Part shown: positions 36,401 to 45,400 of the stretch, one piece after another
Numbering within the stretch: the stretch's first letter is position 1
Layout of the letters: every line of letters begins with the position of its first letter
Assembly (NCBI RefSeq): GCF_011045215.1
Contig: NZ_CP049201.1
DNA length: 64,000 nt
DNA from: Escherichia coli
Lineage (GTDB): Bacteria; Pseudomonadota; Gammaproteobacteria; Enterobacterales; Enterobacteriaceae
Reading direction: 5' to 3' (one strand)
Position numbers: made by a program

Positions 36401-39400
36401 AATCCTGATGATGAGAAAATATTTCCCGCTTGAGGCGAGCGAGCGTCTATTTGTTGCGATTGAAGAAGATGATGTCGTTGATGCACAGGTTAGTTTGCCG
36501 CCGACTATTGCACTAAGTTGTACCACCGAAATCATTCATGATAATTACGCGTTATGCCTGCAATTCTGGCTCAATGGCGTTAATCGTCAGGAATTACTGC
36601 GTTTAGTTCGCAAACAAGCCAAAGGCGATGAGCTGACTGCTGATGAGCGCAAACAATTTAAATACATGCGAGCGCGCTACAAGCACCTGCGTTTTGCGCA
36701 ACGGCTGTATTTAAAGAAGCATCAGGCCGGATTTTTATTCGGCAAAACGACCGTTTTTCTGGGACGTTTTCAGGACGGGTTTCGTAACGGTAAGAAAAAT
36801 ATTGTGTCGTATTACGGCAACCTGTTACGGATTTATTTAAGCTCTCCGGTCTGGTCGTTGGTGAACTATTCATTACGCCATAGCCAGTTAGAAAGCGTAA
36901 GCGGTTTTATTGCCTATCGGCAAAAGCAAATGCATGCCCTGAAAGAGATAATTGCCAAACCGCGACTAACCGGCAGGGAATTTCATGATGTGCGAAAAAT
37001 CATCAGCCAGCAGGTTTCTTATTACGACACCTTAAGATCGCTTGATCCTGAAAATAAAGAGGCGTTACAGATTTCCCGTTTCCTCGCCGCCATTAATGGC
37101 CTGATGGGGGATAAACACGACGACATGGTGGCGGATGATATGGAAAACCGCCAGTCGTATGATGCACCGGTGGCGCTGGATAGCGATATTCGCCAGCGCT
37201 TAGAGCTGCTGATTTCGCGTTTTCCGCTATAACCGGAGCAATGATGTCATCTCGTTTGATTATTGCGCTGATTATCATGCTCTTAGCCCCGGGAGTGCAG
37301 GCACACAATTTCGTCACTGGCAAAACGGTTACCCCTGTTTATATTCAGGAAGGCGGCGAGCTGCTTCTGAATAGCGACGACGAAATTCACTACCAAAAGT
37401 GGAACAGCACACAATTGGCGGGAAAAGTCCGCATTATCCAGTATATCGCCGGGCGTAAGTCAGCGAAGAAGAAGAACTCACTATTAATTAAAGCGGTTGA
37501 AGCGGCAAACTTTCCACAGGATCGTTTTCAGCCCACCACCATTGTGAACACCGATGATGCCATCTTTGGTACTGGCTATTTTGTTGTTGGCAAAATCGAA
37601 AAAAATAAACGCCGCTATCCGTGGGCGCAATTCGTTATCGACGGCAATGGACAGGGACGCGTTGCCTGGCGCTTGCCGGAGCAGAGTTCAACCATTCTGG
37701 TGCTGAATAAAGCCGGGCAAATTCAGTGGGCAAAGGACGGCAGCCTGACGCCGGAAGAGGTAGATCATGTCATTGCGCTGGCGCAGAAACTGATCAATGA
37801 ATAAAAAATTCAAAGGATTGAGGGCGTTAGTGAGATGAAGCTGGTTGAACACTACATCATGCGTGGTACGCGCCGTCTGGTGCTGATTATCGTCGGTTTT
37901 CTGATCTTTATTTTCGCCAGCTACTCCGCACAGCGTTATCTGACCGAAGCGGCAAATGGGACATTAGCACTTGATGTTGTGCTGGATATCGTTTTCTACA
38001 AGGTGCTGATTGCACTGGAGATGTTGTTACCTGTTGGACTGTATGTGTCAGTTGGCGTGACGCTAGGGCAGATGTATACCGACTCGGAAATTACTGCTAT
38101 CTCTGCGGCGGGGGGCAGTCCGGGACGCTTGTACAAAGCCGTTCTTTATCTGGCGATACCGCTAAGTATTTTTGTCACCCTTCTGTCGATGTATGGTCGT
38201 CCGTGGGCTTATGCGCAGATTTATCAGCTGGAGCAACAGTCACAGTCGGAACTGGATGTTCGCCAGTTGCGGGCAAAGAAATTTAACACTAACGATAACG
38301 GACGAATGATCCTTTCGCAGACGGTTGATCAGGATAATAATCGCCTGACTGACGCGCTGATTTATACTTCTACTGCCAATCGAACCCGCATTTTCCGCGC
38401 CCGTTCGGTTGATGTGGTTGACCCATCACCCGAGAAACCGACCGTTATGTTGCATAACGGCACAGCCTATCTTCTCGATCATCAGGGGCGTGACGACAAC
38501 GAACAGATCTACCGTAATCTGCAATTACATCTGAATCCGCTGGATCAAAGCCCTAACGTCAAACGCAAAGCGAAATCGGTCACGGAGCTGGCGCGCTCCG
38601 TCTTTCCAGCCGATCATGCCGAACTGCAATGGCGACAAAGCCGTGGCCTGACAGCATTGTTGATGGCGCTGCTGGCCATTTCATTAAGTCGGGTAAAACC
38701 GCGGCAAGGGCGATTTTCAACATTATTGCCACTGACGTTGCTGTTTATTGCCATTTTTTATGGCGGCGACGTCTGCCGTACGCTGGTGGCTAACGGCGCA
38801 ATTCCCCTCATTCCTGGTTTGTGGTTAGTGCCCGGACTCATGCTAATGGGCCTGCTGATGCTGGTCGCACGCGACTTCTCTTTGCTGCAGAAATTTTCCC
38901 GATGAATGTTTTCAGTCGCTATTTAATCCGTCATCTCTTTCTCGGTTTTGCCGCCGCCGCAGGGCTATTGCTGCCGCTTTTTACCACCTTCAACCTGATT
39001 AACGAACTGGATGATGTCAGCCCGGGCGGTTATCGCTGGACTCAGGCGGTGCTGGTGGTGCTAATGACCTTACCGCGCACACTGGTCGAACTTTCGCCGT
39101 TTATCGCCTTATTGGGAGGGATTGTTGGCCTGGGGCAGTTATCGAAAAACAGTGAGCTTACCGCCATTCGCAGCACGGGTTTTTCTATCTTCCGTATTGC
39201 ACTGGTGGCGCTGGTTGCCGGGATATTGTGGACTGTTTCGTTAGGCGCGATAGATGAGTGGGTAGCGTCGCCATTGCAGCAACAGGCGCTGCAAATCAAA
39301 TCGACCGCCACTGCGTTGGGGGAGGACGATGATATTACCGGCAATATGCTTTGGGCCAGGCGCGGTAATGAATTTGTAACGGTGAAATCGCTGAACGAGC

Positions 39401-42400: not shown

Positions 42401-45400
42401 TGAAGGCTTGCAGCATAAGCCTTCTGATAACGTTTTTTCGCTTCCGCACGGGCAGGCTTGCCGGAGGACGTTCGGGGAATGCTGTGGGGCGGCAACAGAT
42501 CGATAGCCGCGGTCACGCCAAATTCGCTTTGGATCCGTGCTGCCAGCGCGTGGATAAGCTGCCCGCGACGTTCTTCATCGCTGATCCGACACTGGATCTG
42601 CAAAATGATTTTTTCCTGGGCGGTAACAAAAGCAATCGCATCGCCAGAATGAATTTCCGGTTCCTGTTCCGCTATATATTCAATATCCTGCGGCCAGATA
42701 TTACGGCCACGAATAATAATCAGATCTTTAATGCGTCCGGTGACATACAGATAACCGTCCAGCAGATAACCGAGGTCGCCAGTGTCTAACCAGCCCGTCG
42801 CGGCAATCTCGTCTTGCGAAGCCTGGTCGCCAAAGTAACCGCTCATCAGACTGGGACCGGAGATGCAAATATGGCCTACCACACGTTCCGCGACCGGCAT
42901 ACCTGCTTCATTGCGGATTTCAATACCATGTTCCGGCAACGCTTTGCCGCAGTTGACGAAAGTCGATACGGCGCGTGTCTCTGCACCCGGCGCGACGGCT
43001 TTACCCTGATATTCGAGGATGTCGCGATCCACTTCGTTAACCACAACCCCGGAGGCTTCATCAGAGAAGCTGACAGCCAGCGCATTTTCTGCCAGTCCGT
43101 AGCACGGCATGAAAGTTTTATTGTCAAAGTTAACCTGACGGAAACATTCAGCGAATTGATGGAGTTGTTCTGCGGAGATGGGTTCTGCACCAATACCAGC
43201 GACGCGCCAGCAGGAAAGATCCAGTTCAGCGAGATCTTTTTCATTCACGCGGCGCTGGCACAATTCATAGCCAAACGGCGGCGCAACGGAAACGGTGCCG
43301 CGATTTTTACTGATCAATTTAAGCCATTGCAGAGGACGCATGGCAAAATCCTGAGTGCGCAAATAATCTACTGAAAGTTGCGTGGCGACGGGGGTCAGGA
43401 GAAAGCCGACCAGTCCCATATCATGGTAGAAAGGCAGCCAGGAGACGCAGCGGTCGCCAGGGCGTAATTTAATGCCATCGTGGCTTATGGCGCGTAGATT
43501 AGCCATCACTTCGCGGTGAGTGATAATGACGCCACGGGGAAAACGGGTGCTGCCGGAGGTGTACTGGAGGTAGGCGATATCGTCCGGAACTGGGCGCTGG
43601 AGCGCAACATCGGCTTCCGGTAATGCCTTAAACCAGGCGTGGCTTAAAACATGTAATTCGGGGTTGTCATGCGTCGCGGCATTGACCAGTGGCAACCACT
43701 CATCACCAGTGATAATGGCTGCGGGCTGGCAACTTGCCAGTAAACCCTGCAGTTTGGCGCTCCAGGAATCCCGCTGACCGACGCCCATTGGAATCGCCAA
43801 CGGGACGGCGACTAAGCCGGCATACTGGCAGGAAAAAAAAGCCTCTACGAACCCGCTACTGGTTTCGGCAATCAGCGCCACGCGATCGCCTTTTTTCAGG
43901 TTTAGCGATAACAACCGCTTCGCACCAGCTTCGGCACGCGCTTTTAACGTCTGATATTCCAGTTGATCTTCAAGTTGGCAACGTCTGTCATAAAAATTCA
44001 TTCCAGCGCTACTCAGAGCGGCGTAGTCCAAAGCATCAACCAGCGTTGGAAAATCGGCATAGCGCATAGGTAGGGAATGCGTAAAGATTTTATTAGACAT
44101 ATACACCACGAAAAAATTGGATATCCAAAATAAAATGACAATAATGCGGTGGATTATATAGGCATAAAAGATAAATGAGATAGTATTTTCATCAGTGTGA
44201 AAATGAACATTGATTTAAATAATGAGTTTGAGTTTTTTTGTTTTTATTGTGAATGATATTTAATTTATGAATATATTAAGAAGAAGCCTTGTCCGGTCGC
44301 CTTAAATCGACAAAAGGCATTGTGGCGCTTCTGTGTAGTCGCTGACCTTATCGTAATCATTAATAAATACTATTTATTCGTCGTTTGTATTCATTGGGTT
44401 GATTATTAAGGTGCCGTTCGTTGCTGTTGCAACCTGTTTGTCACCGTTAATTATTTGTTACCCACAGAACTATGGAATGCGATCTGCTGATGATTAAAAT
44501 TGAAAAAGTAATTAATAAAAATGACCTTAAGGCATTTATCGCTTTTCCGTCATCACTTTATCCCGACGATCCAAACTGGATACCCCCTTTATTCATTGAA
44601 CGCAACGAGCATTTGTCTGCGAAAAATCCGGGGACGGACCATATCATCTGGCAGGCGTGGGTGGCAAAAAAAGCGGGGCAGATAGTTGGGCGTATTACCG
44701 CGCAAATAGATACCTTGCACCGCGAGCGTTACGGCAAAGATACCGGTCATTTCGGCATGATTGACGCCATTGATGATCCGCAGGTTTTTGCCGCGTTGTT
44801 TGGCGCAGCGGAAGCGTGGTTGAAGTCACAAGGTGCAAGTAAGATCAGCGGTCCTTTCAGCCTGAATATCAATCAGGAAAGCGGATTACTGATTGAAGGT
44901 TTCGATACACCACCCTGTGCGATGATGCCGCACGGTAAACCGTGGTATGCCGCGCATATTGAACAATTGGGTTATCACAAAGGCATTGATTTACTGGCGT
45001 GGTGGATGCAGCGAACCGATCTCACTTTCTCTCCGGCGCTAAAAAAACTGATGGATCAGGTGCGCAAAAAGGTGACCATTCGCTGCATCAATCGCCAGCG
45101 GTTTGCCGAAGAGATGCAGATCCTGCGTGAGATTTTCAACTCTGGCTGGCAGCACAACTGGGGATTTGTGCCGTTTACCGAACATGAATTCGCGACCATG
45201 GGCGACCAACTTAAATATCTGGTGCCGGACGATATGATCTACATCGCTGAGATTGATTCTGCACCCTGCGCGTTTATTGTCGGCTTGCCGAACATCAACG
45301 AGGCGATTGCCGATCTGAACGGATCGCTCTTTCCCTTCGGCTGGGCAAAATTGCTGTGGCGTTTGAAAGTCAGCGGTGTGCGAACTGCGCGAGTGCCGCT

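Follow-up and report, generated by a model that had tools for sequence, protein, structure and literature searches.

Escherichia coli K-12 lacks the central 8 kb of a probable sphingolipid locus that is ancestral in Escherichia

What lies between yghQ and yghO in Escherichia coli, and did K-12, in which a copy of the insertion sequence (IS) IS5 separates these genes, lose it or never have it? We addressed this question in a 64,000 bp stretch of E. coli DNA, here called the window, from contig NZ_CP049201.1 of assembly GCF_011045215.1. The window is chromosomal and 99.6% identical to strain PapM-32-1 across 15 kb. Its gene content extends from ygiS/parC, by way of hyb, gss and pitB, to glc, sslE and the first part of gsp. 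Genes were called from the open reading frames (ORFs) of the window together with the RefSeq annotation of PapM-32-1. The 8064 bp that separate yghQ and yghO (positions 36408–44471) are filled by eight intact genes, none of which is flagged as a pseudogene in the PapM-32-1 annotation. As the original prediction had proposed, they include a permease pair and an operon containing spt, the serine palmitoyltransferase (SPT) gene, with no IS among them. We conclude that this block is probably the central 8 kb of a chromosomal sphingolipid locus of approximately 13 kb, which extends from yghT to yghO and is ancestral, under selection and dispensable. The gene content, family assignments, K-12 end points and distribution given below are our own observations.

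The K-12 IS5 sequence returned zero matches across the whole window, and the IS5 terminal repeat was also not found in it when up to two mismatches were allowed. The sole sizeable gap in the block is the 404 bp aasR–yghO intergenic region, and as the gaps are otherwise small there is no space in the block for an IS. In K-12-type genomes (MG1655, DH5a and strain 4A), a 1195 bp IS5 lies between a 3'-truncated yghQ and yghO and the intervening genes are gone, as predicted. When aligned using BLAST, the K-12-type locus matches the window up to position 36127 and again from 44512, and the genes of the block are not present intact in K-12. The interval that had been thought lost, 36408–44471, was essentially right, but the BLAST alignment and the junction sequences place the true deletion at 36128–44511 (8384 bp), which exceeds it by 281 bp on the left and 40 bp on the right. 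The left K-12 junction consists of GATTTAG followed by GGAAGGTGCG, and the right of CACCTTCC followed by TTAATAAAAATG. The IS5 at the junction is complete, with 1195 bp and both terminal repeats (GGAAGGTGCGAA). The 4 bp on either side of it are TTAG and TTAA, i.e. there is no target site duplication (TSD), and as they differ we conclude that the K-12 configuration arose via an IS5-associated deletion of 8384 bp, not a simple insertion. Thus, the window contains the complete form of a locus from which approximately 8.4 kb is missing at the IS5 copy in K-12.

The deletion extends into both flanking genes. K-12 yghQ retains its first 355–356 codons, has lost the last 94 of 449, and is annotated as a pseudogene. 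yghO, which had been expected to be fragmentary, is indeed clipped, but only codons 1–13 of 380 and the promoter region have been lost, and RefSeq places its start inside IS5. Therefore yghQ, rather than yghO, is the more damaged gene in K-12. The truncated yghQ (3060–4124 in our extracted K-12 locus) has been handled as a working gene in K-12 studies. Clustered yghQ variants have been described in chlorhexidine-adapted strains, with a 2-fold shift in the minimum inhibitory concentration for the Keio mutant (PMC8170033); variant calls in yghQ that adjoin IS5 may be mapping artefacts.

To place the K-12 deletion in context, we surveyed 5426 complete E. coli genomes, scoring the block as present when at least 80% of the deleted interval was found. 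Counts cover all 5426 genomes, and strain names are those of sampled matches. The block was present in 4063 genomes (75%), or in 80% after setting aside 342 K-12-type genomes, and some part of the interval was found in 4267. These genomes contain 4287 places in total, all but one of them chromosomal, with a median of one per genome. The K-12 yghQ::IS5 junction is in 342/5426 genomes, and those among the matches listed are all laboratory K-12 derivatives. Thus, the prediction that laboratory E. coli has lost the locus holds for K-12, but not for BL21, BL21-AI, B-ZidR (a B-strain derivative) or KO11FL (a W derivative), which keep the block. Other listed carriers are O104:H4, O111:H8, O145, O25:H4 and O18:H1 strains, and together the carriers cover phylogroups A, B1, B2 and E. 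Full-length matches listed are 95.7–99.5% identical to the window. The block is accessory, as had been suggested, in that it is not present in essentially all E. coli, but it is otherwise unlike an acquired element, being ancestral, of native G+C content, confined to one chromosomal site and present in other Escherichia.

Several further configurations account for genomes in which the block is missing. An O157:H7-type junction, in which pitB is cut by an IS3 fragment that is followed by copies of IS66, is present in 298/5426 genomes. This type lacks yghT to yghO, and no glc genes were found further along in the 8 kb examined. In the O157:H7 strain ECP19-798 (locus L005, 15833–23833), pitB is cut at codon 412 and followed by IS3 fragments and IS66 copies, beside which is a frameshifted gene with a TcdA/TcdB-type glycosyltransferase domain. 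Strains ET665 and SCZE5 have the order gss, IS1A, yghO, and in F5656C1 a truncated yghS is followed by IS1B and then a truncated yghO. Additional deletion end points were seen in yghT and in gss.

These configurations bear on whether some E. coli acquired the block horizontally as an accessory island, in which case K-12 would approximate the empty site. The block is missing from about one in four complete E. coli genomes, the locus is patchy across the Enterobacterales, and elsewhere the whole module is found in unrelated flanks, indicating that it has moved between genera at some time. However, K-12 does not contain an empty site, as its IS5 is flanked by a truncated yghQ and a clipped yghO, without a TSD, and other block-less strains have different IS-marked end points. 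The locus occupies one place in the median genome and adjoins glcC in E. coli, E. whittamii and two cryptic Escherichia lineages; the E. albertii Spt is 96% identical. The block has a G+C content of 50.3% and its flanks one of 52%, and we detected neither an integrase or tRNA gene nor a repeat bounding the block. With native composition, no border repeats and a single chromosomal site, the block does not resemble a genomic island, and an island origin, which is largely refuted within E. coli, seems to us very improbable. As the G+C content is native, the one site is beside glcC, relatives carry the locus and the IS-marked end points are distinct, we conclude that the locus is ancestral in Escherichia and has been passed on vertically; it is not core, but not a rare island either. 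It has been deleted several times in association with IS5, IS1A, IS1B and IS3/IS66, and one of these losses was in the K-12 lineage.

The locus has not diverged evenly. Compared with a second E. coli locus (L015), Orf274, YtfJ2 and the short-chain dehydrogenase/reductase (SDR) share 91% protein identity, and Spt and AcpR 98–99%. Synonymous divergence (dS) from E. whittamii is 0.54–0.73 for yghQ, orf274, ytfJ2 and lptG2, 0.48 for aasR and 0.15–0.37 for most others. Only 16 records reach at least 99% identity to the block in this window. Judged from these sequences, the uneven divergence points to recombination in the middle of the locus or to old alleles there.

What, then, does the block encode? 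All five gene types of the ceramide set (Spt, AcpR, AasR, CerR/epi and bCerS/aca) are present at the locus. The spt gene (40016–41188, minus strand) encodes a protein that scores 597 bits on the NCBIfam equivalog NF047599 (cut-off 500) and matches the Sphingomonas paucimobilis SPT 2jg2 over its full length (374 bits). The equivalents of H159, D231, H234 and K265, which are the catalytic residues of SPT, are conserved. Directly upstream of spt in the same operon is acpR (41188–41436, minus strand), whose stop overlaps the spt start at 41188. It encodes a dedicated acyl carrier protein with a PP-binding domain (51 bits, Pfam) that includes the serine of a GLES motif. The operon also contains aasR (42379–44067, minus strand), for a fatty acyl-AMP ligase/acyl-AcpR synthetase that scores 870 bits on NF006624 (cut-off 600). 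The start of aasR is uncertain, as the ORF can be extended from the annotated ATG at 44067 (562 aa) to a GTG at 44109 (576 aa). Between acpR and aasR, cerR/epi (41468–42382, minus strand) encodes an NAD-dependent SDR with GATGFIG and YANSK (YxxxK) motifs and a match to PF01370 (Epimerase, 74 bits), which is reported to be orthologous to Caulobacter CC_1164 (PMC9386255) and is a candidate 3-oxo reductase.

Divergent from aasR, across a 404 bp AT-rich control region (44068–44471, 32% G+C) that is entirely gone from K-12, is yghO (44472–45614, plus strand). A PDB sequence search with YghO returned only chance-level matches. Structure prediction gives a tandem GNAT fold and places YghO among the GNAT N-acyltransferases, making it a candidate bacterial ceramide synthase. 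The yghO start is also uncertain, as homologues in other genera have 374 aa, a length consistent with initiation at the second Met (MIKIEK, 44490) rather than at 44472.

The locus is not unstudied, as had been supposed. Padilla-Gomez et al. cloned aasR (ECD_02851), acpR (ECD_02853) and spt (ECD_02854) from BL21 and assayed the products, and considered ECD_02852 likely to encode the reductase and yghO (ECD_02850) the N-acyltransferase (PMC9386255). The BL21 AcpR carries 4'-phosphopantetheine and takes up β-alanine label, Spt incorporates labelled serine with palmitoyl thioesters, and 3-oxo-sphinganine forms when AcpR, Spt and AasR are overexpressed together (PMC9386255). A 2026 preprint by Uchendu, Isom and Klein draws the UTI89 locus beside those of Caulobacter and Sphingomonas (bioRxiv 10.64898/2026.04.12.717747).

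Spt could instead use an amino acid other than serine, so that the enzymes make a different amino lipid, resembling a sulfonolipid or an α-hydroxyketone, and the permeases export that compound. The α-oxoamine synthases are versatile, and Spt does score on the BioF, Kbl and autoinducer synthase models, below their curated cut-offs. The P-loop and CHAD-like proteins of the locus, described below, also have no counterpart among the described Caulobacter genes. However, Spt passes the SPT equivalog cut-off, and its 374 bits to an SPT compare with 204 bits to cysteate acyltransferase and about 170–200 bits to Kbl/BioF. As the BL21 enzyme used labelled serine (PMC9386255), a non-serine product is unlikely, and we retain the assignment to sphingolipid synthesis.

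The operon aasR-cerR-acpR-spt is convergent with orf274-ytfJ2-lptF2-lptG2. The lptG2 and spt stop codons are only 34 bp apart, and a second permease pair is thus encoded beside spt. Between them is a G+C-rich hairpin with a 16 bp stem (39979–40013) that was the best-scoring site in a terminator scan and is likely to be a bidirectional terminator. LptF2 (37835–38905, plus strand) scores 318 bits on TIGR04407 but only 94 bits against the E. coli LptF chain 6mhu_F, and LptG2 (38902–39981, plus strand) scores 305 bits on TIGR04408 and 144 bits against the E. coli LptG chain 6mhu_G. Given these weak scores to the E. coli chains, LptF2 and LptG2 are old paralogues of the housekeeping proteins. The lptG2 start overlaps the lptF2 stop by 4 nt. 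None of the genes from yghT to yghO encodes an ABC_tran domain at the curated threshold, i.e. there is no LptB-type ATPase. RefSeq names the pair 'LPS export ABC transporter permease LptF/LptG', a label that is probably wrong as to substrate, and with it block-positive genomes seem to have two lptF and two lptG genes.

Upstream, the permease genes are continuous with genes that K-12 has partly retained. Seven genes, yghS (33510–34223), yghR (34255–35013), yghQ (35059–36408), orf274 (36408–37232), ytfJ2 (37241–37804), lptF2 and lptG2, are all on the plus strand with intergenic gaps of 0–46 bp, and are therefore likely to form one operon. On the minus strand, yghT (32644–33336) precedes yghS. 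YghT, YghS and YghR are three paralogous P-loop kinase-like proteins, and their genes remain intact in K-12 as orphans.

Do these genes belong with the block? We used an alignment of eight Orf274 sequences, from a family that forms 209 clusters at 50% identity, to scan one genome per species and recovered 78 loci (L014–L091). yghT, yghS and yghR are beside orf274 in 70/78 loci, and yghQ is in 69/78. The module was found in many genera of Enterobacterales, and in Luteibacter, Rhodanobacter, Dyella, Carnimonas, Halioglobus, Novosphingobium, Sphingobium, Sphingopyxis and Sphingomonas. In the Sphingomonadales, which are the classical sphingolipid producers, the five module genes are together even though no spt lies within 10 kb. 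The series pitB-yghT-S-R-Q-orf274-ytfJ2-lptF2-lptG2-spt-acpR-SDR-aasR-yghO occurs in unrelated flanks in Hafnia, Citrobacter amalonaticus and strain FGI 57, and the same gene set is found in about 45 further loci from Enterobacterales, Rhodanobacteraceae and Carnimonas. Gene order varies among taxa: in Serratia the spt operon is on the opposite side of yghT, and in Luteibacter spt, yghQ and orf274 are consecutive on one strand. Distant orf274 relatives on contigs P0259, P0303 and P0340 have no spt nearby, but these contigs are too short to be telling. We conclude that the functional unit is the locus of approximately 13 kb from yghT to yghO, which is larger than the 8 kb block.

ytfJ2 was detected only in Enterobacterales-type loci (48/78), nearly all of which also include the permease pair. 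YtfJ2 belongs to the YtfJ family (PF09695, 200 bits; TIGR01626, 212 bits), though PDB sequence searches returned only chance-level matches, as they did for YghS and Orf274. Its hydrophobic N-terminus (first 15 residues MMSSRLIIALIIMLL) has the appearance of a signal sequence. The phosphate transporter gene pitB (31097–32596) accompanies the module in 9/78 loci, which include those of Escherichia and also those of Hafnia, Citrobacter and Pseudocitrobacter, where the flanks are unrelated. This could reflect a link to phosphate or mere hitch-hiking.

The module proteins are only distantly related to characterized families. YghT, YghS and YghR score 24–32 bits on dTMP kinase models that have cut-offs of 83 and 193, and these scores do not support the RefSeq name 'dTMP kinase' for yghT and yghS, which appears over-specific. 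We rejected the Caulobacter ceramide kinase CpgB as a model for the three, as it is a diacylglycerol (DAG)-kinase-like and not a P-loop protein. YghQ (449 aa) is a membrane protein resembling MOP/Wzx-type flippases, with 42 bits on the Pfam Polysacc_synt model (cut-off 28) and a weak match to a MOP flippase model. Orf274, a soluble all-helical protein, matches no Pfam family at E ≤ 0.01, including the CHAD model PF05235. Its predicted structure has the two four-helix bundles of a CHAD fold, with conserved basic and His residues. CHAD domains are polyphosphate-binding helical bundles. Orf274 is not fused to a CYTH domain, and its genomic partners are P-loop and flippase-like proteins. Our literature searches found no paper linking CHAD domains with sphingolipids, and no published link between yghT, yghS, yghR, yghQ or orf274 and sphingolipids. 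The five module genes could account for head-group addition and flipping of a different sphingolipid, which perhaps contains phosphate.

Is the locus still in use? It might be a remnant that is cryptic, decaying and no longer functional in E. coli, a possibility raised by its repeated IS-associated loss and by BL21 with empty vectors, which gave no sphingoid spot on thin-layer chromatography (PMC9386255). The AT-rich control region, and the 3.1-fold increase in K-12 yghS on overexpression of SlyA (PMC5797941), would allow for silencing in culture. However, each of the 14 genes from pitB to yghO is intact in the window and in the majority of genomes, and gene order is kept across genera that are saturated at synonymous sites. 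Relative to E. whittamii and a cryptic clade, the ratio of nonsynonymous to synonymous divergence (dN/dS) across the 14-gene set is 0.03–0.16, in the range of the neighbouring core genes (0.011–0.013 for pitB itself, 0.015–0.025 for glcC). Such low values argue against decay and for purifying selection on the locus. We therefore consider a remnant improbable, and favour a selected sphingolipid locus that may be silent in culture.

Several points nonetheless weigh against a sphingolipid role in E. coli. The locus has been lost many times and is therefore dispensable. To the blank BL21 chromatograms can be added the 32% G+C of the aasR–yghO control region, which counts against routine expression in culture, and the literature that we found, which reports no sphingolipid from wild-type E. 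coli; searches on sphingolipids in Nissle and other E. coli strains turned up nothing relevant. As the Caulobacter head-group genes are absent from the E. coli locus, the end product cannot be transferred from Caulobacter. Finally, the orthology of YghO, the SDR, LptF2/LptG2 and YghQ to Caulobacter proteins is taken from the papers cited.

From the gene content we infer a pathway in which AasR would load a fatty acid onto the dedicated carrier AcpR, and Spt would condense acyl-AcpR with serine to give 3-oxo-sphinganine. N-acylation by YghO and reduction by the SDR, in either order, would then yield dihydroceramide. The ceramide-based lipid would probably receive a head group before being flipped across the inner membrane by YghQ, the candidate MOP-type flippase. 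LptF2 and LptG2 would extract it from the inner membrane and, as the locus has no ATPase gene, would borrow the housekeeping ATPase LptB. More tentatively, most wild E. coli and many Enterobacterales might make a so far undetected sphingolipid only under conditions that activate the locus. This lipid, perhaps rich in phosphate, would have a head group unlike those of the Caulobacter lipids and would be built and flipped by the YghT/S/R-YghQ-CHAD-like module common to Sphingomonadales, Rhodanobacteraceae and Halieaceae. This is a possibility that we entertain rather than favour. If it is true, yghT, yghS, yghR, the truncated yghQ and yghO in K-12 are orphaned pieces of a sphingolipid pathway.

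As originally framed, the finding adds little, as annotation and two recent papers already reveal the locus, its likely chemistry and the fact that K-12 lacks it. The addition made here is the larger functional unit from yghT to yghO. The part most worth following is the yghT-yghS-yghR-yghQ-orf274 module, whose genes are concrete candidates for the head-group and flipping steps that are still missing. Almost all of what is known about the E. coli envelope was learned in a strain without this pathway.

Elsewhere in the window, positions 56479–64000, downstream of glcA, contain intact sslE, pppA and gspS-beta genes and the start of a gspC-gspD type II secretion operon, another region that is incomplete in K-12.

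The closest known system is the Caulobacter crescentus locus (CC_1152–CC_1168/CCNA_01212–01226), in which aasR, cerR/epi, acpR, spt and a GNAT N-acyltransferase gene are clustered as in E. coli. It too encodes a candidate flippase and a second LptF/LptG pair but lacks LptB (PMC9386255, PMC11324152, bioRxiv 10.64898/2026.04.12.717747). The Caulobacter LptF2 and LptG2 bind to one another and to the only LptB, can be deleted only in the absence of spt, and are needed for sphingolipid export (bioRxiv 10.64898/2026.04.12.717747), and a transport route comprising a flippase and LptC2/F2/G2 was proposed by Olea-Ozuna et al. in 2024 (PMC11324152). In contrast to Caulobacter, the E. coli locus lacks LptC2 and all of the genes for the ceramide phosphoglycerate head group (those for the DAG-kinase-like CpgB, CpgA/C, CC_1152, CC_1153 and CC_1158). 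It has instead the three P-loop kinase-like, the CHAD-like and the YtfJ-family proteins and, in some genera, an adjacent pitB. LptF2 and LptG2 are of the same family and length as the permeases of the canonical LptB2FGC extractor and pass the curated LptF/LptG models. However, they are encoded without an ATPase and beside spt, and are dispensable, as K-12 lives without both. Within E. coli, ECD_02850–ECD_02854 of BL21(DE3) and the UTI89 locus are the same locus at the same site, and the BL21 block is 98.0% identical to that in the window. In the 2022 and 2026 papers, which deal with the synthesis genes and the LptF/G homologues, respectively, we found no treatment of yghT/S/R/Q, orf274 and ytfJ2 as members of the unit, nor of the K-12 deletion end points or the distribution in E. 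coli. The locus is of a known kind and, in E. coli, one that has already been described.

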